Shown here in pieces: positions 1-36,639 of a DNA stretch of 64,000 nucleotides. The translations under genes and the position numbers were made by a program. The notes under the pieces are model-generated. The model did not search any database, was not told the origin of the DNA, and saw only the letters and a list, made by a program, of their open reading frames with translations. The DNA comes from Prorocentrum cordatum (taxonomy: Eukaryota), in the NCBI GenBank assembly GCA_963575745.1, contig CAUYUJ010000256.1, positions 1 through 64,000 of the forward strand, in the 5' to 3' direction. Within the stretch, counting starts at the first letter, position 1. Each line of letters begins with the position of its first letter.

Positions 1-29
1 GCCCGCGTCGGCGCCGCCGCCGCAGCCAT
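1..29 (-). CDS. 5' end (MAAAAAPTR...) of another copy of the Rep-like gene, running off the left window edge
   Basis: Positions 1-~450 align with 8335-~8800. The ATG at 29-27 corresponds to the Rep ATG at 8363-8361. Confidence 0.75.
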
Positions 30-741
30 TCCCCCGCACGGCCGCGGCCCTGCGCGCCTGCGAGCCTGCGGGCCAGACGGCAGCGACGATGACGGCGGCG
101 GCGAGGGCGACCCGCGCCTGCGACCCCGCGCCCGCGACCCGCGCCAGCGACCCGCGCCAACGACCAGCGCCCGCGACCCGCGACCGCGATCCGCGCCCGC
201 GACCCCGGCGCGCGATCCCCGCCCGCGAACGGCGACAGCGACCCTCGCTTGCGACCCGCGCGACCGCGACCAACGCCCACGACCAGCGCCTGGCGACCCG
301 CGCCCGCGACCCGCTAAATTCCCGCAGGGGCGGGGGGGAGGGGGCGGAGGAGGGCCGGGGGGCGACGCCCCCCAGCGGCGCGCGAGCGCCCGCAGCCGCT
401 CACTGCTCGCGACGCGGCGCGAGACCGCGGGAACCCGCGCCCTCACCAGCGCCTTGCCGACCCGCGAGAACCAACCCGCGCCCGCGACCCAACGCCCCGC
501 AGGCTCGAAACGGTGGATGTGGGTGTACCCGCTCGTTGCGACTACGACCCCCGCCCCGAAACCTGCCCTGGGCGACCCGCCCGTCGACCTCTGGCGGCCC
601 GCGCCGTGGCGCGAGCCGCCTTGGTCTCGCCCGGACATCGCCTGACTTTAAAACCTCCCACCCCAGTGCCATTACCAGTGACTTACCAGTGAGACTTTAC
701 CAGTGACTTACCCCAGTGACTACTCCGCCCACTCTATAATT
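1..741. mobile_element. Right-hand end of an upstream unit (unit A) of the Rep+transposase tandem element
   Basis: Homologous to 8335-9026: Rep start, CGCGACC-rich tract and iteron arm. The sequence is noisier than the downstream copy. Confidence 0.8.
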
Positions 742-923
742 CACACACGGGGCACATGCGATCAATATAATTCCTCTTCTGATGCTAGAGAGAGAAATTT
801 GTGAGTGCCGCAAGCGCCCCGCCTGTCAATTTATAAGGTGGGCGAGGTAAGTCACTGGGTAAGTCACTGGTAAGTCACTGGTAAGTCACTGGTAAGGCAC
901 TGGGGTGGGGGGTAAGTCACTGG
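641..923. repeat. Large imperfect palindrome with inverted arrays of 11-bp CCAGTGACTTA repeats (junction of units A and B)
   Basis: Left arm ~641-741 (degenerate CCAGTGACTTA repeats), right arm 828-923 (TAAGTCACTGG repeats). The spacer is nearly identical to 9027-9112. Confidence 0.9.
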
Positions 924-1257
924 GGCCCGCGGGGGCCCTGCGGACCTGGCGGCCAAGGCCGACGAGGGCCCCGGCGGGCCCGGGCGGGCCTGGCGACGGC
1001 CCTCCCGGTGCCTCCCCTCATCCTTCCTCGGGCGACGCGCCTCGGGCTCCGCCTGGCTTCGTCGCTTCCCCCCCCCTGCCCCCGTCTGCCCCGGCCCGCG
1101 CGCGCGGGCTGAGTTTTCTGGCGGTGGCCCGCCTGGCACAGAAAACGGACCGGCCCCTCGCTCGTAGGAGGCGGGCCAGATCTCGTAGAACGGCCGCGGC
1201 GAGTTGCCCGCGGAGAAAACTGGAGCGCCCGCGCGCGCGGGCACGAGGGGCCCATTT

Positions 1258-2414
1258 CTAACCCTCGATCTGGCCGCCCTCGGCCGCCACCAGTCGCTGG
1301 CACCGCTTCTTCATGCCCCCGATGCTCTTGCTCACCATGTCCGAGGGAATGCTCTTGGCCGTGCGCTTGAGGCGCCGGATGAAAGCGGCGCGGGTCTCGC
1401 GCTTGCCCGCGGGGAACGCGCGCTCCCGCGCGCGCATGCGCGAGTTCACCTCCCGCCACAGCCAGTAGTCGCGCACGTTCAGCTGCGGACTGTGGGCAGG
1501 GATCTCGAACGCCTGGATGCCGGCGCGCTGCTTGGCGGCGACGCCCTTGCTGGCCTTGAAGCCGGACGGGTCGTTGTCCTCGAGGACGCGGAAGCGCTTC
1601 GTCCCAGGGTACTCCGCCTTGAGCGCCTTGAGAATCGGGCCCTCGTAGATCCGCGCGGCCTCGGAAGCATTCCAATTCCCCTGGATCTCCTCCCACACCA
1701 GCACCTTCCCGCTGCCCACGCCGGCCAAAATGTGCACCCCCTTCGCGCCCGTGTTGTACTTCAACTTCGGATTGGGCTTCACGTAGCCAGCGTTCAGGCC
1801 CTCGCCTGGGCGGCGGATGACGCCCCGCGTGCCCGACTGGGCCACGTGGCGACGCGCCCTGCCCGTGAGCAGGACGGGGAAGAACTTCACGTCGATGTGC
1901 ATATGCACGTGCGACTGCCACCACGACACGGGCTTCCCCTGGTACTTCTCCCCGAACTCGAGGCGGCCCTGGATGTCCTCGTCCGTCAGCAGGGGCTTGT
2001 GGCGCATGGCGTAGAAGCGGTACCCTTTCTCGTGGAGCCTGCGCGCAATGGTGGCCTCCGAGGCCTTGCACCGCGAACTGGTCTTTTGAGGAGACGGGGG
2101 GAGGGAGGGGGGGCAAGGGCAGCTGGGAGGGAAGAGAGAGGGGGGGAGTTTGGAGAGCGCCAGGTCACCTCGTACTCTCCGTTGGCCTTCTTGATCAACC
2201 TCTCCAGGTGGTTGATGAGATTGGCCACTTGAGCCTCGCTGAGGACATTCTTACGGCCAGTGGTCTTCTTCAGGAAGTTGTCCTTGATGAGGCGGGTGAT
2301 GGAGGACTTGTCGCGGTGCAGATTCGCCGCGATGTCGCTGGGCGCCATGTCGCCGTTGGTGTACCACTCCTGGGCCAAGCGAATCTCCTCCGCGGTCATC
2401 GGCGCCCCGGGCAT
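1258..2414 (-). CDS. IS630/Tc1/mariner superfamily transposase (DD35D), copy 1; interrupted by a G-rich stretch at ~2088-2157
   Basis: N-terminal HTH-like segments (MAPSDIAANLHRDKSSITRLIK; SEATIARRLHEKGY), then RHKPLLT and catalytic motifs HIDVKFF, VLEDND and HSPQLNVRDYWLW. About 363 aa when reconstructed with copy 2. Confidence 0.9.
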
Positions 2415-2569
2415 GGCTGGGCGGCGGGCGCGGCGCGCGGGGATACACGGCCGGGCGGGGCCGCGCACGCGGGTCTTAAAGGACGGATTGCTGCGCGGAT
2501 GCATCGGGACTCACATCAACTCGGGGCATTCGGAAAGTGAGCGCCTGGCACCGCCACCCCCTGCATTGC

Positions 2570-2860
2570 CCCGCTGGCTGCCGAATCTGCTGTGGGGTCG
2601 GCCGCCTCGTTGTTCGCATCGGTTGCTGCCTCGTCTGCTGCCTGGGTGGCTGCCTCGTCGCTTGCCTCGTTTGCTGCCTTGTTGGCTGCCTCGCTGGCTG
2701 CCTGGTTGGCTGCCTCGGTGTTTACCTTGTTTGCTGCCTCGTTTGCTGCCTTGTTGACTGCCTCGTTGGCAGCCTGCTAAGGTGCCTCGTGTGTTGCCGT
2801 GTCGACTGCCTCATTGGCTGCATCGTTGGCCATTTGGGCAACGACCTCGCAGGCTGCAGT
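2570..2860 (+). repeat. ~12-bp degenerate minisatellite (GCTGCCTCGTTG-like)
   Basis: Periodic (G)CTGCCTCGT units; also present at ~10830-11110. Confidence 0.75.
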
Positions 2861-3549
2861 GGCAACGAACTTTCCCTTTCACCTGGCCATGGTCCGTCCT
2901 ACTCTGTTCCTTCCCCAAACAATGCTTGTACCTCGGGGGTCTTACTTCTCCCCGAAATGCCTGGGCACGGTGGCTCGTTCGGCCGCCTCGTGGCGGCCTG
3001 TCACCGCCAGTCGCTGCCCGTCGCCGCCCATCGTTTGCTGAACATAGATTGCACCGCATAGATCGCTGACGCTGCAAGATGGATTGCACCACATCGAGTC
3101 CACCACAATAATTTGCTTAGCATAGCTTGCACCACATAGACTGCACCGCATAGATTGCACTACTGAGATTGCTCCGCATAGCTTACACCACACGCATGGA
3201 GTCCATGCTGGCTCTAATTCAATAGTCAATCGGCGCCCCCCTGTGCCCTCCTGTGGAGACGGAGACCGTCTCCGCACGATCCGCAGGAACGTATCGGCGC
3301 CGACGAACGCAAGGGTTCCTTCTAGAAACATCCAGCACCCCGAAAGTTCTAGGGGGAATGGGCGCCTGTGTTGCCACCCCTGGCCTATCCTCCGCACGAC
3401 CTTTCACCCCGCATCCCATAATCCTCGTCCCTCTGGCCCGTCCCCTCCCACTCCTCCTCCTCCTCCTCCTCCTCCTCCTCCTCCTCCTCCAGTTCCTCCT
3501 CCTCCTCCCCCTCCTGCTCCTCTGCCTCATCCTCATCCTCGCCCTCCAT

Positions 3550-3870
3550 CCTCTATCAACCCTCGATCATCCCCCGAACCTCCATTCTTGATGTAACGTC
3601 GAACCTCGATCCTCGATCCTCGAACGAACCTCGACCCTCAATCCTCGATCAAGCTCCAGTCTCGATCCTCGATCCCCCCTCACACCTCGACCTTCGATCG
3701 TCGATCGAACCTCCATCCGCGATCCTCCGTCAAACCTCGATCTCCGAAGGAATCTTAATCCTCGATCGTCAATCAAACCTCGGTCCTCGATCACGAATCC
3801 TTCGTCGCACCTCCATCCAAGATCCTCGCACGACCTTCCTCCTCCCCTCCACCTCGCATTCCACGATCCT
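3550..3870 (+). repeat. CCTCGAT-based short-period repeat flanked by (CCT)n tracts
   Basis: Many CCTCGAT(C) units; duplicated at ~11830-12150. Confidence 0.75.
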
Positions 3871-4676
3871 CGTACCCCTGCTCCAGTTCTCTCCACCTCC
3901 TCCTCCTCCTCCTCCTCCTCCTCCTCCTCCTGCTCCTCCTGCTCCTCCTCCTCCTCCTCCTCGTGCTCCTCCTCCTCCTCCTCCTCCTCCTCACTCTCAT
4001 CCTCGTCTCTGTCCTCGTTCCCGTGTCCTCGTCCTCGTCCTCATTATGCTCCTCTTCCTCCTCCTGCCCCTCCTGCTCTTCCGCCTCGTCTCACTCCTCC
4101 CCTCATCACTCCACTCACCTCCCTTGATGAGGCGTTGGGCGTAAGATGGAAACGTCGAAAGTGTTCAATCCCAAACGTACGGTGCGCGGTGGTCAGGTAC
4201 CCTTTCTATGCAATGCGATGTCTATAGAATGCCATGCAATGCCCAGCAATAGTTTGCCACGCGAGGTAATGACATGCAATGCCATTCAAAGCGATACGAT
4301 ACTATAAACTGTTCTGCTATATGTTGCAGTGTCGTGCCAAGCCCACCCATAAAATGCAATGCAACGCAATGCAATGCAATTTCATGAGGATGGAATTCTG
4401 ACGCAGTGGAGTGCGGGGGGAGGAGGAGCGATGGAAAGAAGCCCCCTCGCTCTGATCAGCATGACGGTGGCCGCCGGGAGCCCGACCACACCCTCCAGCA
4501 TACGTCGTCATCGTCGTCGTCATCGTCCTCGTCTCGTCCTTGTCCACGTCGTCGTGGTCGTCGTCGTCGTCGTCGTCGTTGTCGTCGTCTTCGCCGTCCC
4601 CGTCGCCGTAGCCGCCGCCCTCGCCATCGTCGCCGCCGTCGCCGTCGGAGGGTCAGGGCACGCGTCGGCCGAGCAA

Positions 4677-5455
4677 TGCCGAAAAGTGCCGAGGAATACC
4701 GAAGAGTGCCGAGGAGTGCCGGAAAATGCCGAGGAGTGCGGCGGAGTCCCGAAGAGTGCAGAAAAATGCAGAGGAGTGCCGAGGAGTGCCGAAAAGTGCC
4801 CAGGAGTGCCGAGGAGTCCGGAAGAGTGCCGAAGGATGCCGAGGAGTGCGGAGGAGTGCCGAAATGCCGAGGAGTGCGGAGGAGTGTCGAAAGGTGCCGG
4901 AGTGCGGCGGAGTGTCGAAGATTGCCGAGGAGCGCCGAAGAGTGCCGAGAAGCGCCGAAAATTGCAGAGGAGTGCCGAGGAGTGCCGAGGAGTGCCGAGG
5001 AGTGCCGAAGGAGTGGCGAACAGTGCCGAGGAGTGCGGCGGAGTCCCGAAGAGTGCGGAGGAGTGCCGAGGAGTGCCGAAAGTGCCGAGGAGTGCGGAGG
5101 AGTGTCGAAAGGTGCCGGAGTGCGGCGGAGTGTCGCAGATTGCCGAGGAGTGCCGAAGAGTGCCGAGAAGCGCCAAAAATTGCAGAGGAGTGCCGAGGAG
5201 TGCCGAGGAGTGCCGAGGAGTGCCGAAGGAGTGGCGAACAGTGCCGAGGAGTGCGGAGGAGTGTCGAAAGGTGCTGGAGTGCGGCGGAGTGCCGAGGAGT
5301 GCCGAAGAGTGCCGAAGAGTGCCGAGCAGTGCCGAAAAGTGCAGACAGGAGTGCCGAGGAATGCCGAGGAATGCCGAGGAGTGCCGAGGAGTCCGGAGGA
5401 GTGCCGAAAGATACCGAGGAGTGCGACGGACTGCCGAGGAGTGCTGAGGAGTGCG
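4677..5455 (+). repeat. 10-bp minisatellite (GAGTGCCGAG), followed by (GTC)n to ~5695
   Basis: Directly visible tandem GAGTGCCGA(G/A) units; these produce the spurious VPRSAEECRG ORFs. Confidence 0.9.
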
Positions 5456-5514
5456 TCGTCGTCGTCGTCGTCGTGGTCGTCGTCGTCGTCGTCGTGGTCG
5501 TGGTCGTCGTCGTT

Positions 5515-5546
<32 letters not shown>

Positions 5547-5553
5547 GGTCGTG

Positions 5554-5592
<39 letters not shown>

Positions 5593-5965
5593 CTCGTCGC
5601 CGCCGTCGCCGTCGTCGACGTGGTCGTCGTCGCCGTCGTCGTCGTCCTGGTCGTCGTCGTCGTCGCCGTCGTCGTCGTAGTCGCGGTCGCCGTCGACTCC
5701 CTGTTGCCCTGCACTCCTCCCCAAAGCGGACTGCTTGAAGAAACGCGAGTTCGTAGATCCGCTTTGTGCTCCCCTCTCCCTCCTTCCTGGCCCCCGCCCC
5801 TTTCATTCGCAACTGATGGCTGCTACGGCGTGCAATGACGATGATGCTGATCACGATGGTAATGATTTGGTGACAGTCATGAACACGAACACGAATCTTG
5901 AGCCAACGGCGCGGTTCGGCCTGCAGACGCGGGCCGTTATTTAACTTCTGCAATCTAAAATGTGT

Positions 5966-8363
5966 CTAACACCTCAATTGTGGCAACGGCGGCGCGGCAC
6001 TCGCAGACAGCACCCGTCTCTGTTGCAAGGGCAGCAAACTCGCCCACGACGGCAAGGCCGCCCAATCGTCCGCCGTTAGCTCCGAGACACTGGCCGCCCC
6101 CACGGCCAGGGCATCGTCGTGCAAGGCGTTCGCCACGTCATCGGGGATGGAAACGCGGCGCGTCAGGGCCAAGAGCCCCTCCACCCCTGCGGCCGCGGCG
6201 CCGCCGCCCGCGGAGCGGAGCTGCGGCGAGGGCTGCGGCGGGGCGGCCGGCGCCCCATTGGCGAACGCCGTGGCGGTGGCGACGAGCCACTTGCACCAGT
6301 TCTCCCGGCAGGGCGGCACGGTGCGCAGCTGCGCCTTGGTCAAGGGCACGCCGTCGGCCGTGAACTGCTCGAACCTGTTCTGCAAGTGAGCAATGTCCTC
6401 GGCGCTCACACCGCCGCGCGGCGTCCACAAGCCCTTCAACTTCGACGTCACCGCCATCCCCCGGGCCCAGCACGCGTCAGGGTTCCCATCGTGGAACCGC
6501 TGCGACACCTGCACTTCCATGCACTGCCCACTGAACAACTTCAACTGCGTTGAAACCGGGAGCGTGGGCCGACCGGTCGGCAAGGAGGCATACTCCACGC
6601 AAGAGAACTCGTCCAGGTACATGAACCTCTTGCCCGGCTTCGTCATGTTAGCCAACGGCATGTTCGCGCCAACGGCCGGCTTGTGGAGCACGTGCGTCTT
6701 CCCAAATACGACGTCGATGGGGTCCAACATCGTGCTCTTGCCAGTGTTGCTGGCCCCGGCGATCAGGGGCACCCGCGCCGTCTTGCTGGGCCCCTCGGCG
6801 ATCACCTTCGCCAGACAATGCGCCAGCTGGCCCTCGGGGACCATCGTGTTCCGGACGAAGAAGGACCGCGCCGCCTCCTGCCAGAGGCAGCGGCCGTCCG
6901 CACACTTGCACGACTCGCCAGCCACGCGGCAGATGACCTCCCAGTCGCTCTGGCGCTCCTCTGCCGCGGCCCGCGGGGCGTCGCTCCACTCCCTCGCCTC
7001 CGCGAGCAGAGTGACCAGCTGCCCCTGCCTTCGGGGGCGGGAGCGCACCGCCGCCGGGAGCCCAGGAGCCCCGATCCTCGGGGCCCCTGGAGACGCCTCG
7101 GAAGCCCTCGGGGGGGAAGCGGGCCATCTGGCAGAAGCAAAAACGCCCCGGGGACACGCCGCGAGGCCCCCCAGGGCCATGGCCGCAGAATCTGGCATAC
7201 AGTGGGGCCTGGGCGAGCGCGTTCCCGCTCCTGGCGCCTAGCTCCCACCCAGCGCTGGATCTCCGCACTGCCGTTCTCCTGCACGTGCGCCAACACGGCG
7301 CTCTTGGTCCACAGACCCTCGCTGATGACCAGCGCCTTGAAGTCGACATTCGTGAACCTGACCCGCTCCTTCTTGGACCCCGTCTCCTCGGCCACCTTGG
7401 CGGCCTGCTTCTCGGCCTCCTCCCGCCGTCTCTTGAGGGCTTTGGCGTTGAAGGGTTCCTGGCTGGCTTCGTACAGGTTCAAGGAGGTGCCCTGGCGCGA
7501 CCAGGCCAACGGCTCGTCGTCGACCTGGAGCTTTCGGGGCGTCGTAAAAACCCCGTACCGAACAGCGCTCCAGAACATGGTGTGCGTGGCGCTCCAGTGC
7601 GACGCCAACGCGGAGCGGGCTCGCAGGGCCAGCTTAAAGGGCAAGAACGACGCCTTGTTAGTCAAGCGCAGGGCCACGTGGAAGTGGCGCGGCTCCTCGA
7701 GGAACACCACCATCGACTCGACGCCGACGGGCTCGTTGAGGGGCCTGCCGCCCTTGCGAGACGACGCCGGGGGCGAAACTCGACAAAGGGGCTCCAGACA
7801 AATTACGTTTATCTCGCTGGGAACGGAATCCAAGGTCTCGCGGGCCCGGGGCGGCCAATCGTGGCGCAAAAATCGAACGTTGAAGCTTCCTGTCGAGCGT
7901 CTTCCTCCCAGCGCTGTCTAACCCTGGTCGACTGCACAGGGTTGGCCACGGCGTCCAGGATGGCGTCCCGGATCTGCTCTCGCGAGACTTCGTCTAAGGT
8001 CCTGAGGGCGGGTCCGCCGACGGCGGCCGCGGCCTCGGCGGTCCCTGGGAGCGTCGGCGCGAAGGTGACCAAGTAGACCCACTGCCGAACCTTCGCGTTC
8101 TCTGGGGCGCCCCAGTCTGGGCCAACGGGGCCGGCGGCCACCGCGGCCTGTGCGCCCTCCGGGGTCGACGCTTGCACTGCGGCGCGGAGGATCTCTCCGA
8201 CCTCCTCCCGCCTGTCGTCCAAGCCGTCAGGCTGCAAACCCAAGTGGGCCGCCAACCTGTGCCTGAAGGCCTTGACACTGATGGCCGCGAGCTCGACCCC
8301 CCGGAGCAGAGCCCTCGACGCCTCGTCCAGCTGCGCCCGCGTCGGCGCTGCCGCCGCAGCCAT
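5966..8363 (-). CDS. Three-exon rolling-circle replication initiator-like protein, ~672 aa: DEK-C-like domain, HUH endonuclease, superfamily 3 helicase, SAM-like C-terminus
   Basis: Predicted exons 8363-7923, 7752-7238 and 7028-5966 (2019 nt) join in frame. Intron 1 is GT-AG (7922-7753) and intron 2 is GC-AG (7237-7029). Motifs: VYLVTF (RCR I), RHFHVAL (HUH), VRYGVFTTPRK (candidate Tyr), GASNTGKS (Walker A), FMYLDEF (Walker B), AVTSK (motif C position), LQNRFEQF (Arg finger). Confidence 0.82.
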
Positions 8364-8439
8364 TCCCCCGAACGGCCGCGGCCCTGCGCGCCTGCGAGCC
8401 TGCGGGCCAGACGGCAGCGACGATGACGGCGGCAGCGAG

Positions 8440-8880
8440 GGCGACCCGCGCCTGCGACCCCGCGCCCGCGACCCGCGCCAGCGACCCTCGCCAACGACCG
8501 GCGCCCGCGACCCGCGACCGCGATCCGCGCCCGCGACCCCGGCGCGCGATCCCCGCCCGCGAACGGCGACAGCGACCCGCGCTTGCGACCCGCGCGACCG
8601 CGACCAACGCCCACGACCAGCGCCTGGCGACCCGCGCCCGCGACCCGCTCAGGGAGGGGGCGGAGGAGGGCCGGGGAACGACGCCCCCCGGCGGCGCGCG
8701 AGCGCCCGCAGCCGCTCGCGACACGCGCGACCGCGACCCGCGCCCGCGACCAGCGCCTGCCGACCCGCGACCCGCGCCCGCGACCAACGCCCGCAGCTCG
8801 AACCCAGAACCCGCGGGCGGCACGCGCCTGCGACCTACGACCCGCCCAGAACCTGCCCTGGGCGACCCGCCGGCGACCTG
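8440..8880 (+). repeat. GC-rich CGCGACC/CGACCCGCG short-repeat tract between the Rep start codon and the palindrome
   Basis: Dense recurrence of (C)GCGACC(C); homologous tract at ~105-580. Confidence 0.7.
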
Positions 8881-8930
8881 CTGGCGGCCCGCGCCCGTGG
8901 CGGCGAGCCGCCTTGGTCGCCGCGGACTCG

Positions 8931-9208
8931 CCAGTGACTTACCTCCCACCCCAGTGCCTTACCAGTGACTTACCAGTGACTTACCAGTGACTTACCCAGT
9001 GACTTACTCCGCCCACTCTATAAATTCACACACGGGGCACATGCGATCAATATAATTCCTCTTCTAATGCTAGAGAGAGAAATTCGTGAGTACCGCAAGC
9101 GCCCCGCCCGTCAATTTATAAGGTGGGCGAGGTAAGTCACTGGGTAAGTCACTGGTAAGTCACTGGTAAGTCACTGGTAAGGCACTCGGGTGGGAGGTAA
9201 GTCACTGG
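8931..9208. repeat. 278-bp imperfect palindrome with six 11-bp iteron-like repeats per arm (junction of units B and C); candidate origin or abutted terminal inverted repeats
   Basis: Arms 8931-9026 and 9113-9208 are reverse complements, with 5 mismatches in 96 bp by manual comparison. The 86-bp spacer also contains symmetric pairs (CGGGGC/GCCCCG, TGCG/CGCA, TCTA/TAGA). Confidence 0.93.
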
Positions 9209-12200
9209 GGCCCACGGGGGCCCCGCGGACCTAGCGGCCAAGGCCGACGAGGGCCCCGGCGGGCCTGGGCGGGCCTGGCGACGGCCCTCCCGGAATGAAT
9301 GCCCCCCCTTATCCTTCCTCGGGCGACGTGCCTCGGGCTCCGCCTGGCTTTGTCGCTTCCTCTCCCCTTCCCCCGTCTGCCCCAGCCCGCGCGCGCAGGG
9401 TGAGTTTTCTGGCGGTGGCCCGCGCTCTGGCCCCGAACGGCCGCGGCGAGTTGCCCGCGGGGAAAACTGGGGTGCCCGCGCGCGCGGGCACGAAGGGCCC
9501 ATCTCTAACCCTCGATCTGGCCGCCCTCGGCCGCCACCAGGCGCTGGCACCGCTTCTTCATGCCCCCGATGCTCTTGCTCACCATGTCCGAGGGAATGCT
9601 CTTGGCCGTGCGCTTGAGGCGCCGGATGAAAGCGGCGCGGGTCTCGCGCTTGCCCGCGGGGAACGCGCGCTCTCCCGCGCGCGCATAAGCGCCGAGTTCA
9701 CGCTCCCGCCACAGCCAGTAGTTCGCACACGTTCATGCTGCGGACTGTGGCATGGATCTCGAACGCCTGGATGCCGGCGCGCTGCTGCGTGCAGCTTGCA
9801 CGCCCTTGCTGGCCGTTGAAAACAAGCCGGACGGTCGTTGTCCCGAGGACGCGGAGCGCTTCGTCCCAGGGGCCTCCGCCTTGGGGTGGTGGGGGGGTGG
9901 TGGGGAGGTGGGGCGTGAGGGGGGGGGTTGTGTGGGGGGGGGAACGCCTGGAGAATCGGGCCCTCGTAGATCCGGCGGCGCCTCGGAGAGCATTCGCAAT
10001 TCCCCTGGATCTCCATCCACACCAGCACCTTCGCCCCGCTTGCCGGCCAAAATGTTGCACCCCTACCAGACCCGTGTTGTAACTCAAACTTCGATTGGGC
10101 TTCACGTAGCCAGCGTTCAGGCCCTCGCCTGGGCGGCGGATGACGCCCCGCGTGCCCGACTGGGCCACGTGGCGACGCGCCCTGCCCGTGAGCAGGACGG
10201 GGAAGAACTTCACGTCGATGTGCATATGCACGTGCGACTGCCACCACGACACGGGCTTCCCCTGGTACTTCTCCCCGAACTCGAGGCGGCCCTGGATGTC
10301 CTCGTCCGTCAGCAGGGGCTTGTGGCGCATGGCGTAGAAGCGGTACCCTTTCTCGTGGAGCCTGCGCGCAATGGTGGCCTCCGAGGCCTTGCACCGCGAA
10401 CTGGTCTTCAGCATGCGCCAGGTCACCTCGTACTCTCCGTTGGCCTTCTTGATCAACCTCTCCAGGTGGTTGATGAGATTGGCCACTTGAGCCTCGCTGA
10501 GGACATTCTTACGGCCAGTGGTCTTCTTCAGGAAGTTGTCCTTGATGAGGCGGGTGATGGAGGACTTGTCGCAATACAGATTCGCCGCGATGTCGCTGGG
10601 CGCCATGTCGCCGTTGGTGTACCACTCCTGGGCCAAGCGAATCTCCTCCGCGGTCATCGGCGCCCCGGGCATGGCTGGGCGGCGGGCGCGGCGCGCGGGG
10701 ATACACGGCCTGGCGGGGCCGCGCACGCGGGTCTTAAAGGACGGATTGCTGCGCGGATGTATCGGGACTCCCATCAACTCAGGGCATTCGGAAAGTGAGC
10801 GCCTGGCACCGCCACCCCCTGCATTGCCCCGCTGGCTGCCGAATCTGCTGTGGGGTCGGCCGCCTCGTTGTTCGCATCGGTTGCTGCCTCGTCTGCTGCC
10901 TGGGTGGCTGCCTCGTCGCTTGCCTCGTTTGCTGCCTTGTTGGCTGCCTCGCTGGCTGCATGGTTGGCTGCCTCGGTGTTTACCTCGTTTGCTGCCTCGT
11001 TTGCTGCCTTGTTGACTGCCTCGTTGGCAGCCTGCTAAGGTGCCTCGTGTGTTGCCGTGTCGACTGCCTCATTGGCTGCATCGCTGGTCATTTGGGCAAC
11101 GACCTCGCGGGCTGCAGTGGCAACGAACTTTCCCTTCCACCTGGCCATGGTCCGTCCTACTCTGTTCCTTCCCCAACTTGCACCTCGGGAGTCGTATTTC
11201 TCCCCGAGAGACGTGGGCACGGTGGCCCGTTCGGCCGCCTCGTGGCGACCTGCCACCGCCAGTCGCTACCCGTCGCCGCCCATCGTTTGCTGAACATAGA
11301 TTGCACTGCATAGACCGCTGACGCTGTAAGATGGATTGCACCACTTCGAGTCCACCACAATAATTTACTTAGCATAGCTTGCACCACATAGACTGCACCG
11401 CAAATAGATTGGCACTACTGAATTTGCTCCACATAGCTTACTTACACCACACAGCATGGAGTCGCATGCTGGCTCTAAATTCAATAGTCATCGGGCCCGC
11501 CCCTCCTGTGCCCTCCTGTGGAGACGGCGACCGGTCTCCGCACGAATCCGCAAGGAACGTATCGGCCGCCACGAACGCAAGGGTTCCTTCTAGAAAAACA
11601 TCCAGCACCCCGACAGTTCTAGGGGGAATGGGCGCCTGTGTTTGCCACCCTGGCCTATCCTCCGCACGACCTTTCCCCCCCGCAATCCCATAATCCTCGT
11701 CCCTCTGCCCGTCCCTCCCACTCCTCCTCCTCCTCCTCCTCCTCCTCCTCCTCCTCCTCCTCCTCCTCCTCCAGTTCCTCCTCCTCCTCCCCCTCCTGCT
11801 CCTCTGCCTCATCCTCATCCTCGCCCTCCATCCTCTATCAACCCTCGATCATCCCCCGAACCTCCATTCTTGATGTAACGTCGAACCTCGATCCTCGATC
11901 CTCGAACGAACCTCGACCCTCAATCCTCGATCAAGCTCCAGTCTCGATCCTCGATCCCCCCTCACACCTCGACCTTCGATCGTCGATCGAACCTCCATCC
12001 GCGATCCTCCGTCAAACCTCGATCTTCGAAGGAATCTTAATCCTCGATCGTCAATCAAACCTCGGTCCTCGATCACGAATCCTTCGTCGCACCTCCATCC
12101 AAGATCCTCGCACGACCTTCCTCCTCCCCTCCACCTCGCATTCCACGATCCTCGTACCCCTGCTCCAGTTCTCTCCACCTCCTCCTCCTCCTCCTCCTCC

Positions 12201-12458
12201 TCCTCCTCCTCCTGCTCCTCCTGCTCCTCCTCCTCCTCCTCCTCGTGCTCCTCCTCCTCCTCCTCCTCCTCCTCACTCTCATCCTCGTCTCTGTCCTCGT
12301 TCCCGTGTCCTCGTCCTCGTCCTCATTATGCTCCTCTTCCTCCTCCTGCCCCTCCTGCTCTTCCGCCTCGTCTCACTCCTCCCCTCATCACTCCACTCAC
12401 CTCCCTTGATGAGGCGTTGGGCGTAAGATGGAAACGTCGAAAGTGTTCAATCCCAAAC

Positions 12459-12461
<3 letters not shown>
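9113..12461 (-). mobile_element. Truncated third unit (unit C) of the composite element
   Basis: Colinear with 828-4180. Homology stops at CCCAAACGTAC, where the (TAC)n tract begins. Confidence 0.85.
9505..10672 (-). pseudogene. Tc1/mariner-type transposase copy 2: N-terminal half intact, frameshifted over ~9670-10100
   Basis: Same protein as copy 1 up to YVKPN, then many small indels and a G-rich patch (~9880-9945) that could be read errors. Confidence 0.8.
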
Positions 12462-22310
<9,849 letters not shown>

Positions 22311-24724: not shown

Positions 24725-26108
24725 CCTCCTCCCCTCATCCTCCCCCGCCTCCGTCCCAGGAGGGCCGCTCGCAGACTGTATGAAGGGGCCCTGGGACACA
24801 CAAATAAATACACACAAATAAAAAGATTCCCCATAGTTTCATGTATTTTCTGGGTTTTTGTCTTCCCGCCCAATTCCCATATTTTCCCATATTTTCCAGG
24901 GAATCGACGGTTAATTATGTGTGTGTGTGTTCCCCTCCTGACTGTAGGGGGCCTCGTGCCGTGCCTCCGCTGGCGCGCGGGGAGCCGCGCTCGCCCGACG
25001 AGGACTATTCCTCCTCCGCCGCCTCCGCCCGCCGGGGGCGTCTTCGAGAGAAGGAATAGCTCGGCGGAAGGACGAAAACGCCAGCATGCGCCTGCGCTCC
25101 CAGGACCAGTCCCCGCGCGCGGGGTCGGATTGTGCGAACGTCGCAGGTGCCCCAAAACCGTTGGCCCACACTCCAGACAATTGACTCGACCTAGGTCATC
25201 AGAACTTCGCCTCGGCGACAGCTCTCTAAACCGAATGCGTGACTGCTTGCTCACGTGTTTTGTGGCTTGTGTGTTAGGGCTTGGGAAATCCCGCTGCGGC
25301 ATGTGTTTCCTATTGTTGGCAACGCTTGGTCGTCAACGCCTCCTGGTCCTCAACTCTAGCAGGTTGTTTTGAGTTCTGCATCATGCTGCTTATCTTCGCC
25401 TGTTTGTCTATGTTACGTGCTCCACTCGTGCGACGGATGTTCTTGGCAAGGGTTCATTGGACAAGAAACCAAAGACCATCACAACGGCCAAAATCCCTTG
25501 ACCGTGTAGGGGGAGGGGGGGAGATCAGGACTCGACCCGAACATTGACCCTGGCGCCCCCTCAGAAGACGCAGACGCCCCGGGATCTTGCCCTCCGACCA
25601 ACTCTTCTCAATCAATGCCCCCGCCGTGCGCATGCTCGAACTCTCCCGTCCGATGGCACGATGGCACATGTGCCGCGTAGGCGTCACACATGTGTTGGGC
25701 GCAGCATCCCCTTCCGTACTTCTCCTTCGCTCGGCGTGCCCCGCTCTCTTCTGCGCCTGCGTCCCGCTGGCATGAACTCCGCCTTCTCTCCTTTGCGCCT
25801 GCCCGCGCCTGCGTCCGCACCCACCGTGGCCCAAGCGGCTCGCGCTGAGTAGCCCTGCAGGCATTCGCGAGGCGTCGACGGCCCGGCCCCTTTCAGCGCC
25901 GGCACCCCGCGCGGCCCAAGCGGCTCGCGCGGAGTGGCGCCCTTTGGGCCTCGGGCATGGCTCGACGGGGCTCCCGAGGCTGGGCAAGGGAGCCCCGGCG
26001 TGCGACTCCAGACCTGCAGTGCACGTGGACACTGCTGCATCCGCCGGCCGGCCTCTCGATACCCCTTGGCCGCTGCTAGTGCTTGCTCTGGGCGGGCGCC
26101 TTCCTCAC

Positions 26109-27683
26109 CTGCGGGAAGTCCTCGGCAACGAGGGCCGCAGTGTCACTCCAGTCCTGCCTCTGGCAAATCCTCCTCAGGAACATGCCTGCCTCTTCGTTGG
26201 GGCGCCGATTCCCTGGCGTCATCACGTTGCACATCGCGACGGCATCATCGTACCTCTTGAGCTTGACGCAGCAAAACACTGCGTCGTGATAGGTGGCGCG
26301 GTAGGGGCTGATCTGCGCCTCAAGCATCTCATTGAAAAGGGCCAGTGCCTCCTCCAGCTTGTCGTTGGCGACGCAAGCCCTGACCACTATCTGATAGGTT
26401 TGGGCGTTTGGCTCCACCCGCAGGCTAGGCCCGTCCTTGAGCAGCTGCATGGCCTTGTCCATCCTGCCGAGCTCGCAGTAGGCGGTGAGAGCCGCGTTGA
26501 AGTGCACCCGGTCGGGGCGGACTCCCCGCTCGGTGAGCTCGTCGTAGAGCGTCAGCGCGAATGCGGGGTCGCTCCACTGGTACGCGGACATGATGCAGCG
26601 GTACGCCGTCCAGCTGAGGATGATGCCCTCCTCCAGAGAGCAGAAAACAGCCAGGTCTACGGAAACAAACAGTGGCATAGACTTTGAACTCAGATGTCCG
26701 CGCGGATTGCTCGGATCGGCGCTGGACCCCCCTCCCTGGCGTGCGGAGCGCGCCAGGGGCAGCGCCGAAGGCGCCGCCAGGGGGCCCCAGCGCCAATCCG
26801 AGAAATCCGCGCGGACCTCCGAGTTTTTGATGCTCCTGCCAAGGATTGTTCCCCTGAGGCCAGCCCTGGGCTCCGAAGGGAGCCGCTTGGGTGCCACCAG
26901 GGCCGCCCCGGCAGTGCCCTGACCCAGCAGCCGTGGAACGGCCGCCTCGTGGCCACAGCGGATCGGGCCTCCAGGGCCTCGGGGCGCCAAGGCTCCAGGC
27001 GGACTGGGCCGACCCGAGCGCTGACCGGTTTCTTCCCGATGGCCCTTTCCCGATGGAGGAGGAGGAGGAGGAGGAGGAGGAGGAGGTGGAGGAGGAGGAG
27101 GAGGAGGAAGAGGAGCAGGAGGAAGAGGAGGAGGAGGAGGACCCGATCCTCCCTCATCTTGACGAAGTACGCCACGACGTGCTCTGGAAGCTTGCTCCTC
27201 CACGCGACGATCAAGTGGTCCTGGGCACCGACCGCGGGCGAGAGCCCGTGTGCCCGGATCGCGTCGAGGAGCCGGAGGCCATCTTGCCGCATGCGCTCGT
27301 CGCCGATGCTGTGCACGACGAGCTTGAAGAACCTGACGGCGGTGCGCCGGTCGATCGCGTGCTGGGAGTCCGCCACCCCCTCGGCGGCGGCGCGCACAAG
27401 GAGGTAGCGCGAGGGGTGGTGCACAAGAAGGAGGCGGGGGAGCTTCCGAGGGGGAGGGAGCCTTCTTGGCAGCCTCCAGGCCCCTCTGAGAAAGTCCCTG
27501 CCTTCTCAGAAGATCCTCGCCGCCTCCTTAGAAGCCCCTTCCCCCCCCTCGCGCCACGCCCTTGTGCGCACCGCCGGCCTTGGTGAGCATCACGTCGAAG
27601 ATCTCCAGCGCGGTCTCCGCCAGGTTGCGCTTGTTGCAGACGTCCATCGCCACAGCGAACGACGTGACGGTGGGGCTCGCGTC
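26109..27683 (-). CDS. Spliced pentatricopeptide-repeat (PPR) protein, internal exons
   Basis: Exons 27683-27579, 27379-27149 and ~26627-26109 join in frame with GC, GA and GT donors. PPR motifs include GVRPDRVHFNAALTAYCELGRMDKAMQLL and VEPNAQTYQIVVRACVANDKLEEALALFNEM. Possible further exons at 25854-25809 and 24307-24267 are tentative; the 5' end was not located. Confidence 0.85.
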
Positions 27684-28756
27684 CTGCCAGAGCCGACGGC
27701 AGGGTGGGAGGCAGGGAGCGGCCGGGGCACGAGGGTCGCGCGATCTTGCGCCCTGCGCGCGCGCCTGCAGTGTCTGCGCGCGGGAGCCGTGCCTCAGCGT
27801 CGGGAAGCGCGCTTCGAAGGGGGCCGGGGCAGGGAACGCGAGGACGTCTGGCCCCCACGGGGGCCCAAAGTCTGGCCGATATCGGCGCGCCCCCACGGCA
27901 ACGCGGACCCCAGCGTCCTGTAGATGATGGAGCTCCGCCGAGGTGTCCGCCAGCGCCTTCACGGCCGAATCCGAAATAATCGGATGACGCCAGCACTGAA
28001 CTCTGGTAAATGCTATGGGGGTGCTGCGTTCACTTCCGCGCGGGCTTCCGCCAGACCCCTGCCAGGCTTCACACGCGGCAGATGGAGCCGCCGTCGTTTT
28101 ACTTTACGCTCGCTGGCTTCTAAGGGCGTTCCGCTAGCTTCTGCTGGGGGAAGAGGGCGAGTTTCATCCCTCGCTCCCTTGACGAAGAGCATGTCTTGAA
28201 CGACTCGTAAAAATATCTGAGACGGCTCTTCCCCCCAGTCCTGCTGGCAGGAGCCAGCGCTAGGCCACCTCAAACCCCCAGCCGGCTCCAAGGGCAATTT
28301 CTTTCCCGACGCTCGGAGGCGGGCCAGCACAGACAGTCAAAACGGATAGCTAGGATGCGCGATAACGATGAAGACCCTTGGACGCCCATGTCGAAGCTTT
28401 TCGAGCGGGGCTGACCGTCAACAGTGGTTAAGGATGGACCGAAGAGGCAAGGATACCGGGGTGCCGTTGGGAAGGTTACCCGTGCTTATCTTCGATTCCA
28501 GCGTCAGCTCCTTGCTCCCGGCTGCTCATCTTGCCCAGGTCCCTTCAGGCAAGTGACCCATTCTGCAAGAGTCCCTTGGGATGGTTATCTATCCTGCTCC
28601 TCATCCTGCAATGGTACCCTTCAGAAGAAAAATAAAACGCATGAAAAGAAAACTTCGATGGTCCGCGTGGAGTTCTTGGATCTGCGCCAAGGGGGGGCCA
28701 AAGGCGCCCCCAGGGGGCCCCAGCGACGATCCGAGGAATCCACGTGAAACTTCCGA

Positions 28757-29218
28757 ATATATATATATATATATATATACATATATACATATATATACAT
28801 ATATATAATTTTATGTATGTGAGTGAGTGAGTGAGTGAGTGAGTGAGTGAGTGAGTGAGTGCATGTGTGTATGTGTGTACGTGTGTATGTGTGTATGTGT
28901 GTGTATGTGTGTGCGTGTGCGTGTGCGTGTGCGTGTGCGTGTGCGTGTGCGTGTGCGTGTGCGAATGGGTGTGTGGGTGTGGGTGCGGGTGTGGGTGTGG
29001 GTGTGGGTGTGGGTGTGGGTGTGGGTGTGGGTGTGGGTGTGGGTGGTGTGGGTGTGGGTGTGGGTGTGGGGTGTGGGGTGTGGGGTGTGGGGTGTGCGTG
29101 TGCGTGTGCGTGTGCGTGTGCGTGCGCGTCTCCGCGTGCGCGTGCGCGTGCGCGTGCGTGTGCGTGTGCGTGTGCGTGTGCGTGTGCGTGTGCGACTGCG
29201 CGTGCGTCTGCGTGTGTG

Positions 29219-29250
<32 letters not shown>

Positions 29251-31410
29251 TCTGTGCGCCTGTGCGTCTGTGTGTCTGTGTGTCTGTGTCTGTGTGTCTG
29301 TGTGTCTGTGTGTCTGTGTGTCTGTGTGTCTGTGTGCCTGTGTGTCTGTGTGTCTGTGTGTCTGTGTGTCTGTGTGTCTGTGTGTCTGTGTGTCTGTGTG
29401 TCTTTGTGTCTGTGTGTCTGTGTGTCTGTGTGTCTGTGCGTCGTTGTGTCTGTCTGTGTGTCTGTCTGTAAGTCTGTCTGTGTGTCTGCCTGTGTGTCTG
29501 TCTGTGTGTCTGTTTGTGTGTCTGTCGGCGTGTCTTCCTGTGTGTCTGTATGTATGTCTGCCTGTGTGTCTGTCTGTGTGTCTGTCTGCGTGTCTGTCTG
29601 TGTGTCTGTCTGTGTCTGTCTGTGTGTCTGTCTGTGTGCCTGTCTGTGTGCCTGTCTGTGTGTCTGTATGTGTCTGTGTCCGTGTCTGTATATGTGTCTG
29701 TGTCTGTGTCTGTGTCTGTGTCTGTGTCGGTGTCTGTGTCTGTGGCTGTGTCTGTGTCTGTGGCTGTGGCTGTTTCCGTGTCCGTGTCTGTGTCTGTGTC
29801 TGTGTCTGCGTCTGTGTCTGTGTCTGTGTCTTGTGGTGTGTTGTGTTCTGTTCTGTTCTGCTCTGATCTGTTCTGGTATGTTGTGTTGTGTTCTGTTGTG
29901 GTGTGTTGCGTTGTGCTGTGCTGTGCTGTGCTGTGTTGTGTTGTGTTGTGCTGTGGTGTGGTGTGGTGTGGTGTGCTGTGGTGTGTTGTGCTGTGTCGTG
30001 TCGTGTTGTGTTGTGGTGTGTTGTGTTGTATTGTGGTGTGGTGCGGTGTGTTGTGTTGTGCTGTGTTGTGGTTGGGTTGCGTTGCGCGCGCGAGAGCGTG
30101 CGTGCGTGCGTGCGTGCGTGCGTGAGGGCGTGCGTGTGTGTGTGTGTGTGTGTGCGTGCTTGTGTGTGTGTGTCTGTGTGTGCGGGGTGGTGGGGTGGGG
30201 AGGTGATGTGTGTGGTGTGAATGGTGTGCGTGGGGTGTGTGTGTGTGTGCGTGTGCGTGTGTGTGTGCGTGTGCGTGTGCGTGTGCGTGTGCGTGTGCGT
30301 GCGCGTGTGCGTGCGCGTGCGCGTGCGCGTGCGCGTGCGCGTGCGCGTGCGCGTGCGCGTGCGCGTGCGCGTGTGCGTGTGCGTGTGCGTGTGCGTGTGC
30401 GTGTGCGTGTGCGTGTGCGTGTGCGTGTGCGTGTGCGTGTGCGTGTGCGTGTGCGTGTGCGTGTGCGTGTGCGTGTGCGTGTGCGTGTGCGTGTGCGTGT
30501 GCGTGTGCGTGTGCGTGTGCGTGTGCGTGTGCGTGTGCGTGTGCGTGTGCGTGTGCGTGTGCGTGTGCGTGTGCGTGTGCGTGTGCGTGTGCGTGTGCGT
30601 GTGCGTGTGCGTGTGCGTGTGCGTGTGCGTGTGCGTGTGCGTGTGCGTGTGCGTGTGCGTGTGCGTGTGCGTGTGCGTGTGTGCGTGTGCGTGTGCGTGT
30701 GCGTGTGCGTGTGCGTGTGCGTGTGCGTGTGCGTGTGGTGCGTGCGTGCGTGCGAGCGTGCGCGTGCGCGTGCGCGTGCGCGTGCGCGTGCGCGTGTGCG
30801 CGTGTGCGCGTGTGCGCGTGCGTGTGCGTGTGCGTGTGCGTGTGCGTGTGCGTGTGCGTGTGCGTGTGCGTGTGGGTGTGGGTGTGGGTGTGGGCATGGG
30901 GGTGGGTGTGGATCTGGGTGTGGGTGTGGGTGTGGGTGTGGGTGTGGGTGTGGGTGTGGATCTGGGTCTGGGTGTGGGTGTGGATCTGGGTCTGGGTCTG
31001 GTTGTGGGTGTGGGTGTGGGTGTGGGTGTGGGTGTGGGTGTGCGTGTGGGTCTGGTTGTGGGTGTGGGTGTGGGTGTGGATCTGGGTCTGGGTCTGGGTG
31101 TGCGTGTGGGTGTGGGTGTGTGGGTGTGGGTGGATGTGTGTGTGTGTGCGGGTGTGGGTGTGGGTGTGGGTGTGGGTGGGTGTGGGTGTGGGTGTGGGCG
31201 TTTGCGTGTGTGTGTGGGTGGGTGTGGGGGGGGGTGGGGGTGTGTGGGTGTGTAGGTGTGTGGGGTGGGTGTGTGTGGGTGTGGGTGTGTGTGGTTGTGT
31301 GGGTGTGGGTGTGTGGGTGTGTGTGTGTGTGGGTGTGTGGGTGTGTGGGTGTGTGGGTGTGTGTGTGTCTGTGAGTGTGTGTGTGTGAGTGTGTGAGTGT
31401 GTGTGTCTGT
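28757..31410 (+). repeat. Compound (AT)n then GT-rich microsatellite block (GTGA, GTGTGC, GTGTGG, GTGTCT, GTTGT units)
   Basis: Directly visible. Confidence 0.95.
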
Positions 31411-31574
31411 CATTGTACGTTTCTCTATACCCATCCTTATCATCGATATCGGCTGTATCTCCCTGCTCGCAGACCCCCCACGTCGCGATTTTGTTCACAA
31501 CGTTGACCCCTTCCGGACCGGTTTCTCGTGCCGAGTCGTTTTCTGACGGCCCCGAGGCCCGATCAGGGCCCCTG

Positions 31575-31875
31575 GAAGCCGAAAACAGCGAAAAACCTCC
31601 CGTCGTGATTTCTGTCACAACGCGAGGGGGTCTGGGATTGTAACTCCTACAATCCGTAAATAGCGAAAGACCTCCCGTCGTGATTTCTTGACAGCGCGAA
31701 GGGGTCTGGACTGTAGCTCCCGGAGGCCGAAAATAATGAAAAACCTCCCGTCGTGATTTTGTTTCACAGCGCGAAGGGGACTGGGACTGTAGCTCCCAGA
31801 AGCCGAACACAGCGAAAAGCCTTCCGTCTTGATTTTTGTCCCACAGCGCGAGGGGGTCTGGGACTGTACCTCCCT
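31575..31875 (+). repeat. ~75-bp minisatellite, about 4 copies
   Basis: The CCT(C/T)CCGTC(G/T)TGATTT core occurs at 31596, 31671, 31744 and 31820; duplicated at ~52190-52490. Confidence 0.8.
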
Positions 31876-34506: not shown

Positions 34507-34540
<34 letters not shown>

Positions 34541-36364: not shown

Positions 36365-36572
36365 CGGCGGCCGTCGGGGACGCTCCAGGCAACCCCCGGG
36401 AGCGCTCTCGGCCAGGCGCCACCGCTGGAAGGGGCCCCCCGAGGCTGGAAAACCGCCGGGGACCGCTGGAAACGTCCCAGGCCTTCGATCCTCGAACCTC
36501 GGAGGTGTTCATCCACCCCTGAGCCTTCCCCCCCCGAAAACCTCGAAGCTCGAACGTCGACGACGACAAGAA

Positions 36573-36639
<67 letters not shown>

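Follow-up and report, generated by a model that had tools for sequence, protein, structure and literature searches.

The 278-bp palindrome at positions 8931 to 9208 of the window (the whole stretch of 64 kb that we analyzed) is the conserved control region of a widespread, apparently undescribed family of small, mobile Rep-plus-transposase elements in dinoflagellates. We read it, with a probability of about 0.6, as a Rep-binding replication origin that appears to be built for head-to-head assembly of two helicases and that belongs to an integrated, partly decayed Rep element. This reading draws on the sequence of the palindrome, its position upstream of a Rep-like gene, and the comparison of 73 related loci in metagenomes. 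The family member in the window is old and partly broken, and it sits in the chromosome as a tandem.

Structure and setting of the palindrome

The preliminary description of this DNA reported two 96-nt arms (8931-9026 and 9113-9208) that differ at exactly five positions, and we located these differences at 8952, 9008, 9009, 9017, and 9018. An inverted-repeat search gave longer arms of 115 nt each (8931-9045 and 9094-9208), which are 90% complementary, have 11 mismatched positions between them, and enclose 48 nt. Each arm carries six iterons of 11 to 12 bp of the CCAGTGACTTA type; a repeat-family search of the sequence thereby bore out the six CCAGTG(A/C)CTTA-type repeats per arm described earlier. 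The iterons of the left arm start at 8931, 8951, 8962, 8973, 8984, and 8996, and their spacing of 20, 11, 11, 11, and 12 bp is mirrored in the right arm (12, 11, 11, 11, and 20 bp), where one iteron (9176-9188) has two mismatches. With at most one mismatch, CCAGTGACTTA occurs 19 times in the 64-kb window against an expectation of 0.90 (0 of 100 shuffles reached 19), and all 19 matches fall inside this hairpin and its copy at 641-923. A search with a 13-mer iteron and up to three mismatches placed 21 of 27 matches in the window within the same two hairpins. The other six are isolated, have three mismatches each, and are at chance level.

The inner part of the palindrome follows the same symmetry. 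CGGGGC/GCCCCG, TGCG/CGCA, and TCTA-atgc-TAGA share the axis of the arms, and the inner arm ends read TATAGAGTGGGCG and TATAAGGTGGGCG, all of which had been pointed out before and is present in the sequence. TATAAAT boxes lie in both inner arms and face the core, away from the genes. The GC content is 51% in the hairpin, 33% in its 48-nt core, and 82% in the left flank, which makes the hairpin an AT-rich island. Mirrored arrays that resemble initiator sites thus flank an AT-rich core in the window, an arrangement that recurs in relatives, and the core (9046-9093) is a candidate region for melting or nicking. The canonical nonanucleotide NANTATTAC is absent from both strands of the hairpin, as the preliminary description had it; the nearest sequence there is TTATATTGA, on the Rep-sense strand. 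When folded as single-stranded DNA, a check that had been suggested earlier, the palindrome reached -121.7 kcal/mol, compared with -33.0 ± 3.7 kcal/mol for shuffled sequences (z = -24.2; 0 of 200 shuffles folded as well). The copy at 641-923, already recognized as the same structure, is 94.9% identical over 273 columns, with five gap openings located mostly in its left arm, and folds at -96.3 kcal/mol (z = -15.8).

Table 1. Positions of the features discussed, in the coordinates of the 64-kb window.
Feature	Position	Strand	Basis or remark
Tandem unit 1, cut by the window edge	1..8334	-	Self-comparison
Palindrome copy 2, one unit away	641..923	.	Right arm kept, left arm decayed by indels
Tc1/mariner-like DDE transposase gene, copy 1	1258..2414	-	Pfam, tblastn; frame broken at about 2086-2158
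Rep-like gene (HUH nuclease plus SF3 helicase)	5966..8363	-	tblastn, motifs, folds; start ATG at 8363 inferred
Tandem unit 2, 89-96% identical to 1-4180	8335..12462	-	Ends at (TAC)n satellite
Iteron palindrome, well-kept copy	8931..9208	.	Arm complementarity and ssDNA fold
Left iteron array, six CCAGTG(A/C)CTTA units	8931..9007	+	Repeat-family search
Inward continuation of the left-arm palindrome (CGCCCAC, TATAAAT, GGGGC, TGCG)	9008..9045	+	Partner 9094-9130
AT-rich asymmetric core, 33% GC, with small apical hairpin TCTA-ATGC-TAGA	9046..9093	.	
Right iteron array, mirror of the left, six units	9131..9208	-	Repeat-family search
Transposase gene, copy 2	9508..10672	-	tblastn, frame-shifted pieces only

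Positions 1-4180 recur at 8335-12462 with 89 to 96% identity, which amounts to 1.5 diverged tandem copies of a unit of about 8.3 kb, and both palindromes occupy the same place in this duplicated unit. On the minus strand the order is palindrome, Rep gene, a low-complexity stretch, transposase gene, and then the next palindrome. The well-kept palindrome lies 568 bp upstream of the inferred Rep start codon, and the palindrome adjoining the transposase gene (that of the next unit) lies 335 bp downstream of the latter. Nothing more of the unit was found in the window beyond the satellite at 12462. The window itself is GC-rich, repeat-rich eukaryotic DNA with a pentatricopeptide-repeat open reading frame (PPR_2, 4.5e-18); scans of all 64 kb gave no Rfam match at the gathering score and no tRNA gene.

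Contigs from four public sequencing runs cover the unit at 88 to 99% identity. In these runs the depth over the hairpin is close to that over Rep (15.7 and 18.7, 11.8 and 12.3, 36 and 31, and 14 and 8 to 10, respectively), and the hairpin is therefore not an independent high-copy repeat. Among the matches listed, the hairpin is nowhere bridged by a single contig piece (coverage ends at 8821, returns for 8945-9083, and resumes at 9123), and no loose end falls at it. One contig joint, from 9299 to 1009, only restates the tandem repeat.

The Rep protein and the transposase

The Rep frame in the window consists of three segments (8345-7935, 7779-7246, and 7033-5978) separated by about 155 and 212 nt, which are either introns or damage. 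The window copy reads HFHVAL, RYGVFTTPRK, GASNTGKST, and FMYLDEF and has the motif I, II, and III and Walker A and B features of its relatives. In the family, aligned with 13 and later with 24 members, these motifs are VYLVTF (motif I), HFHVA (motif II), GxxNxGKS (Walker A), and RFIYWDEF (Walker B), and the Tyr and Lys of motif III (RYGVFxTxxK) are invariant in both alignments. No Pfam family matched Rep at its cutoff; weak matches recur in the family to REP_ORF2-G2P (10 of 24 members), PPV_E1_C (8 of 24), and Gemini_AL1 (5 of 24).

An AlphaFold model of Rep (pLDDT of 85.3) matched AAV2 Rep68 over both domains, and the best matches for the whole fold were AAV2 Rep68, parvovirus NS1, and papillomavirus E1. 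For the helicase fold, AAV2 Rep40 scored a Z of 16.3 (root mean square deviation of 3.0 over 199 residues), B19V NS1 a Z of 15.9, and papillomavirus E1 a Z of 15.0. Among predicted viral structures, E1 and parvoviral NS1 were closest to the model, and its neighbors in the ESM Atlas were Parvo_NS1 and large T clusters. We also modeled the N-terminal domain alone (pLDDT of 79) and aligned it exhaustively to 48,161 chains. The 10 best of these chains were all Rep nuclease or origin-binding domains (Z of 8.8 to 6.3), among them Vientovirus Rep (8.8), FBNYV M-Rep (7.6), the origin-binding domain of SV40 large T (7.3), and geminivirus Rep (7.1); with Z at most 8.8, the match is modest. Foldseek with the same model gave no match at an E value of ≤0.001, the best being a nanovirus Rep nuclease at 0.094. 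Searched by sequence against the PDB, neither the Rep piece from the window nor the full or the N-domain profile found anything significant (best E values of 0.2 to 1). Four of the five rows for the N-domain profile were geminivirus Rep domains, none significant, and the HUH motif aligned with wheat dwarf virus Rep at a nonsignificant E value of 0.6. The HUH motifs, the Rep nuclease-like fold of the N-domain, and the helicase fold matches together identify Rep, as modeled, as an HUH nuclease fused to a superfamily 3 (SF3) helicase.

The Rep family comprises 2,180 representative clusters at an E value of ≤0.001, 1,215 at ≤1e-10, and 428 at ≤1e-30. Part of the Rep-like open reading frame shares 97% identity with a database protein named Prorocentrum cordatum, which makes a dinoflagellate the probable source of the window. 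One cluster of the family includes a Breviolum minutum protein together with members whose contigs reach 2.7 Mb. A search of IMG/VR confirmed no Rep relative (13 pattern matches, none confirmed) and found no exact match to two joined iterons, and tblastn of plasmids and phages with a family Rep gave no match.

The preliminary description presumed a Tc1/mariner-type transposase, and such an enzyme is indeed a conserved partner of Rep in these elements. Copy 1 in the window matches HTH_Tnp_Tc3_2 in Pfam (1.1e-08; 35.7 bits against a cutoff of 31.5) and, weakly, DDE_3 (0.0055). The columns of the catalytic residues D120, D225, and D261 are invariant in 12 aligned transposases, the window copy included. 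The frame of copy 1 is broken by a stretch of 73 nt where copies in other data sets hold eight letters (joint from 2085 to 2159). We rejected this stretch as an intron because the eight letters in the copies of other runs keep the frame, so that it is a disruption. A variant of the gene with a 605-bp deletion is common to all four public runs. The transposase family has at least 216 matches, nearly all with PF01498, and one is named from Symbiodinium natans. We found no inverted repeat pair flanking the transposase gene alone. The element copy in the window may be inactive, judging from the Rep frame in three segments and from the broken frames of both transposase copies.

Relatives of the element in metagenomes

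Searching metagenome contigs with the Rep profile, we obtained 73 loci of the family, and at least 34 of them have an inverted-iteron architecture upstream of Rep. In 27 loci this consists of two inverted arrays with 4 to 7 tandem iterons per arm. Five further loci have larger palindromes made of iteron clusters, two further loci have 2 plus 4 iterons, and another five have a single arm cut by the contig end. Among the loci with at least 1 kb of sequence upstream of Rep, the architecture is absent in only two; the remaining loci are too short upstream to judge. In the 20 hairpins that we measured, the iterons are 11 to 12 bp apart with mirrored spacing, mostly 5 to 7 per arm, around an inner gap of 104 to 131 bp. 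The window hairpin falls within this pattern (six per arm and a gap of 130 bp). Its outermost-iteron offset of 19 to 20 bp recurs in loci L047 and L052, whose iterons start with CCAGT, as those of the window do.

The sequence of the iterons varies by element. We counted about 19 types, with one large group reading TA(G/T/C)NNNACAA(C/T) and another reading CCAGTNNC. An architecture and a place before Rep that are kept while the recognition sequence changes are the signature of a cis site read by an element-encoded protein. The preliminary description had held that its reading would fail if the spacer in other copies were variable and nonpalindromic; instead, the spacer is repeated along with the rest of the unit, and relatives, too, have a spacer that is partly palindromic. 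The TA-flanked inner arm ends are not conserved in relatives. We found no nick motif conserved across the relatives' spacers; words containing TATT are common near the axis, with inconsistent place and strand. Among the relatives read by eye, a full match to NANTATTAC occurs only in L019.

Seven contigs have exact terminal overlaps of 99 to 141 nt, which close them into units of 6.58 to 6.92 kb with the palindrome internal. They could equally be circles or tandem arrays, which the assemblies do not distinguish. In six self-closing contigs, the extremes of cumulative GC and AT skew do not coincide with the palindrome. In L025, a solo left arm of the L019 type with about 40 nt of spacer is joined to the sequence of another element, a junction that suggests recombination inside the spacer rather than a transposon end. 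The preliminary description had proposed asking whether arms occur singly or always as the full hairpin. Followed up within the window, this gave full palindromes only and no solo array, which counts against the transposon-end reading; in particular, no solo arm with a TA target duplication stands at an element end there.

Conservation across the elements is limited to Rep, the transposase, and about 350 bp that precede the transposase gene; the comparison revealed no conserved capsid-like open reading frame and no other conserved candidate origin. Of the 73 loci, 22 encode a transposase of the same family on the Rep strand, downstream of Rep; these are all the loci of that clade that are long enough to show it. 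L027 and L029 carry DDE_1-type open reading frames in its place. L018 is a unit of about 4.6 kb with the palindrome, Rep, and the transposase only. In this element, in L047, and in the window, all of them compact, the iteron palindrome is the sole large inverted repeat.

To which of the two proteins the iterons belong is indicated by a few relatives. The iteron TAGGACACAAT is common to L001 and L019, which are sisters in Rep (support of 100/99; 76% identity, against 60 to 65% to others). In the transposase tree L001 is instead sister to L008 (97/96; 76%), the iteron of which differs. L001, L008, L019, L020, and L023 also have another, separate palindrome immediately before the transposase gene, a 25- to 28-nt inverted repeat whose halves are 186 to 194 nt apart, with a nested second repeat. 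This second palindrome is the same throughout the transposase clade of L001, L008, and L019 and differs in L020 and L023; it is absent from L018, from L047, and from the window, including the region upstream of the window's transposase gene. These sequence comparisons favor Rep, rather than the transposase, as the reader of the iteron arrays; the tracking rests on one informative trio, and both observations are confounded by physical linkage, since each palindrome adjoins "its" gene. In the compact elements (L018, L047, and the window), which have one palindrome only, that palindrome may conceivably serve two DNA enzymes.

Proposed function and comparison with known systems

If the palindrome is a Rep origin, each arm would provide about six sites, one per helical turn, for the nuclease or origin-binding domain of Rep. 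One N-domain subunit would bind per turn, all on one face of the DNA, and the six sites per arm would match a hexameric SF3 helicase. Because the two arrays point at each other, two helicase rings would assemble head to head and load over the AT-rich core of about 120 bp, which would then melt and possibly be nicked. Nicking in the asymmetric core seems likely from the motifs of Rep, as HUH and Tyr are both kept. The Tc1/mariner-type DDE transposase would most likely insert the replicon, in its putative extrachromosomal form, into chromosomes.

Two rival readings take the arms as transposon ends. The preliminary description proposed a dual use, with the palindrome as the Rep origin and at the same time as the abutted ends at which the DDE transposase would insert a circular form. 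The origin half of this proposal gained from the comparison (Rep domains and at least 34 of 73 loci), whereas no test supports the arms as Tc1/mariner terminal inverted repeats, and we consider the dual use unlikely. In its favor are the linkage of Rep to a same-strand transposase in 22 of 73 loci and to DDE_1-type genes in other sublineages (L027 and L029), the invariant D, D, D columns, the lack of an inverted repeat pair of the transposase's own where the iteron palindrome is the sole large one (L018, L047, and the window), and iterons that begin with CCAGTG, like the CAGTG ends of Tc1 and Tc3. It is opposed by the separate palindrome beside the transposase gene in the L001 clade, by the absence of a solo arm at an element boundary within the window, and by a layout (six tandem 11-bp sites per arm and a gap fixed at 104 to 131 bp) that is unlike the circle junctions of IS and Tc1 elements. 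Taking the arms as transposon ends only, namely, as the long terminal inverted repeats of an 8.2-kb Tc1/mariner-type transposon that captured Rep and now lies in two copies end to end, is very improbable. The inverted arms with TATA at their inner ends and the Tc1/mariner-like gene inside the unit would fit; however, the spacer repeats with the unit (about 95% identity between the two copies) and is palindromic on the axis of the arms, and the right end of the array is the (TAC)n satellite and not an arm. Furthermore, arms with a gap of 104 to 131 bp recur in unrelated data sets and in self-closing contigs, and the inner-end sequences vary among relatives.

Other readings leave the transposase aside. 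The fold of the whole Rep, closest to AAV Rep68, parvovirus NS1, and papillomavirus E1, its ESM Atlas neighbors (Parvo_NS1 and large T clusters), and tandem short repeats within a long palindrome, which recall the Rep-binding element of AAV, would suit a free form that is linear and hairpin ended, with the palindrome as a head-to-tail junction resolved by Rep nicking, comparable to the dimer bridges of parvoviruses or the double-D ITRs of AAV. We find this quite doubtful: the palindrome is internal in seven self-closing contigs, a capsid-like conserved open reading frame is missing, CRESS-type Rep nucleases are the best match to the N-domain on its own, and no linear ends were observed, although linear forms might go unseen in assemblies. 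It is similarly hard to see the arrays as serving maintenance or regulation only, as tethering or partition sites or as an autoregulated promoter, with replication starting elsewhere. Repeated initiator sites do play such a role in some episomes (the EBV FR, for example), and the palindrome, with its TATAAAT boxes in both inner arms, stands between two genes. Yet both boxes face the core and not the genes, the conserved feature is inverted symmetry around an AT-rich core, and the elements contain no other conserved origin candidate. Finally, the hairpin is compact (278 bp) and occurs twice in the window, and it could be an independent foldback or MITE-like repeat that came to lie beside Rep by chance. 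This is hardly credible given that both copies occupy the same place in the duplicated 8.3-kb unit, that there are no further arrays in 64 kb, that the depth is about that of Rep in four runs, and that the structure persists upstream of Rep in relatives whose iterons differ.

Beyond the origin reading, we can sketch a broader picture, which we offer tentatively and regard as rather unlikely as a whole: a new class of small circular "episome-transposon" hybrids of dinoflagellates and other marine protists, replicated by a parvovirus/CRESS-like Rep from a palindromic origin with two arrays and integrated by the Tc1/mariner-type transposase, with one palindrome serving both enzymes, as origin and paired transposon ends, in the compact forms. 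If the origin reading holds, the elements would stand as a living intermediate, with Rep-encoding plasmids or viruses on one side and cut-and-paste transposons on the other, and they would account for a class of multicopy Rep-like genes in Symbiodiniaceae and Prorocentrum genomes. The six-plus-six site geometry would offer a testable model of double-hexamer loading by HUH/SF3 proteins. Dinoflagellates are notoriously hard to transform, and the palindrome and Rep would provide a natural, sequence-defined replicon and origin for them.

Rep initiators and iteron-bearing origins are well known, and the palindrome resembles several of them in part. The pentanucleotides of SV40 site II and the palindromic E1 sites of papillomaviruses, such as BPV, are inverted initiator sites at which helicases load head to head. 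The likeness to these polyoma- and papillomavirus origins lies in inverted initiator sites at AT-rich DNA and in an origin-binding domain with an SF3 helicase loading head to head; it extends to the proteins, as the Rep helicase matches E1 (Z of 15.0) and the N-domain matches the origin-binding domains of SV40 (7.3) and E1 (6.0). In contrast to the two or three short sites of those origins, there are 5 to 7 tandem sites of 11 to 12 bp per arm here, with a gap of about 120 bp. Rep also retains the HUH and Tyr motifs lost in large T and E1, and the elements have a transposase and lack a capsid gene.

With parvoviruses and the terminal repeats of AAV, the elements share the whole-protein fold of Rep68 and NS1, tandem short repeats in a long palindrome, and a kept HUH motif. 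They differ in that the contigs are circular or tandem (4.6 to 6.9 kb), in the lack of a VP-like gene, and in repeats of 11 to 12 bp instead of tetranucleotides; we identified no terminal resolution site of the parvovirus type in the palindrome. The origins of CRESS viruses, geminiviruses, and nanoviruses likewise combine a Rep of the HUH Y1 nuclease-plus-SF3 type with lineage-specific iterons upstream of rep, and their nucleases are the closest to the N-domain. Unlike those origins, the window lacks the canonical NANTATTAC and has many iterons in two inverted arrays and a stem of more than 100 bp; the elements are 2 to 3 times larger and encode a DDE transposase. The title of PDB entry 9pqq describes a "double hexamer" of a CRESS Rep.

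Tc1/mariner transposons of the IR-DR type and IS circle junctions have in common with the present elements a Tc1/mariner-type transposase (in the former), inverted arms with direct repeats, and the geometry of two joined ends. They are set apart by one or two sites of about 30 bp, against six 11-bp repeats, a long spacer of conserved length, and a Rep gene here. Replitrons and Helitrons are, like the present family, eukaryotic mobile elements with an HUH Rep (PMC10288648). According to passages of the Replitron paper, the Replitron Rep has no helicase, and palindromes close to the element ends may take part in recognition (PMC10288648). The Helitron Rep has an SF1B helicase instead, and neither group, as portrayed in such passages, has a DDE transposase or inverted iteron arrays; the same passages do not mention dinoflagellates, Tc1, or iterons. 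A paper on viral invasion in Symbiodiniaceae (PMC9651163) contains none of the terms "ssDNA," "NS1," "replication-associated," and "superfamily 3." We found no description of elements combining Rep with a DDE transposase, or of such palindromes, in dinoflagellates in full-text searches of openly accessible articles. Compared with all these systems, what is apparently new is a probable origin made of two inverted arrays of about six iterons spaced at one helical turn, the conservation of this design across the family, and its association with a DDE transposase in elements that lack a capsid gene.

Palindromes in relatives of the element

Besides the iteron palindrome, the inverted repeat arrays upstream of Rep, five metagenome loci of the same Rep family carry a second conserved palindrome directly upstream of the transposase gene. 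It consists of a 25- to 28-nt inverted repeat (CCGGT..GGATAAA.AAA.GC.CA) with arms 186 to 194 nt apart, and a C-rich/CAATGTTG repeat is nested inside it. Within one transposase clade, the palindrome is identical across the clade's three elements. Its role could be that of a site for the transposase itself or that of the gene's promoter.

In locus L025, a lone left arm of the palindrome type found in L019, together with ~40 nt of that palindrome's spacer, is fused to L025-type element sequence. This junction points to recombination within the spacer, and it could be a site of Rep nicking or termination. In the 9.9-kb relative L027, the iteron region is built of arrayed ~103-bp units, every one of them a hairpin in its own right, and inverted copies of this region (88% over ~240 nt) form the contig ends. 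L027 has an open reading frame (ORF) of the DDE_1 type (pogo-like) in place of the DDE_3 type.

Coordinates of features in the window and in related metagenome loci
Feature	Sequence	Position	Strand	Match
Second palindrome	L001	4921-5160		
Second palindrome	L008	4525-4763		
Second palindrome	L019	3077-3315		
Second palindrome	L020	291-532		
Second palindrome	L023	6098-6341		
Arm-spacer fusion	L025	241-362		
Inverted iteron arrays	L027	1-540 and 9683-9920		
ACAAT/ATTGT(T) iterons	L008	1510-1564		
Transposase deletion	Window	1627-2233		
(TAC)n-derived satellite, ~10 kb	Window	12453-22300		
Pentatricopeptide-repeat ORF	Window	26079-27527	-	PPR_2, 4.5e-18
Second direct duplication	Window	33456-39713 and 54100-60445		
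Second direct duplication, also	Window	28548-32032 and 49475-52644		
100-N run	Window	start near 49777		

A transposase deletion variant and a fused gene model

A variant of the transposase gene with 605 bp missing and 9 other nucleotides at the joint was present in all four sequencing runs compared (X1, X2, X5, and X6) and is a widespread internal-deletion derivative. In the public P. cordatum gene model P0022, the N-terminal ~120 residues of the transposase are followed by the C-terminal ~140 of Rep; this fusion is probably either a misprediction across a unit boundary or a deletion copy.

Surroundings of the element in the window

Unit 2, the partial tandem copy, stops at ...CGTAC (12462), and the start of the satellite coincides exactly with this break. 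Every reading frame of the satellite is repetitive. The pentatricopeptide-repeat ORF identifies the window as nuclear DNA of a eukaryote. Copies of the second large direct duplication are offset by ~20.6 kb, have identical ORF sets, and include long, His/Thr-rich low-complexity blocks (Cys/Val-rich on the opposite strand).

Iterons and the papillomavirus E1 site

In the TA.NNNACAA(C/T) group, found in L008 and its relatives, many of the iterons contain ACAAT/ATTGT(T), a motif resembling the hexanucleotide of the papillomavirus E1 binding site.
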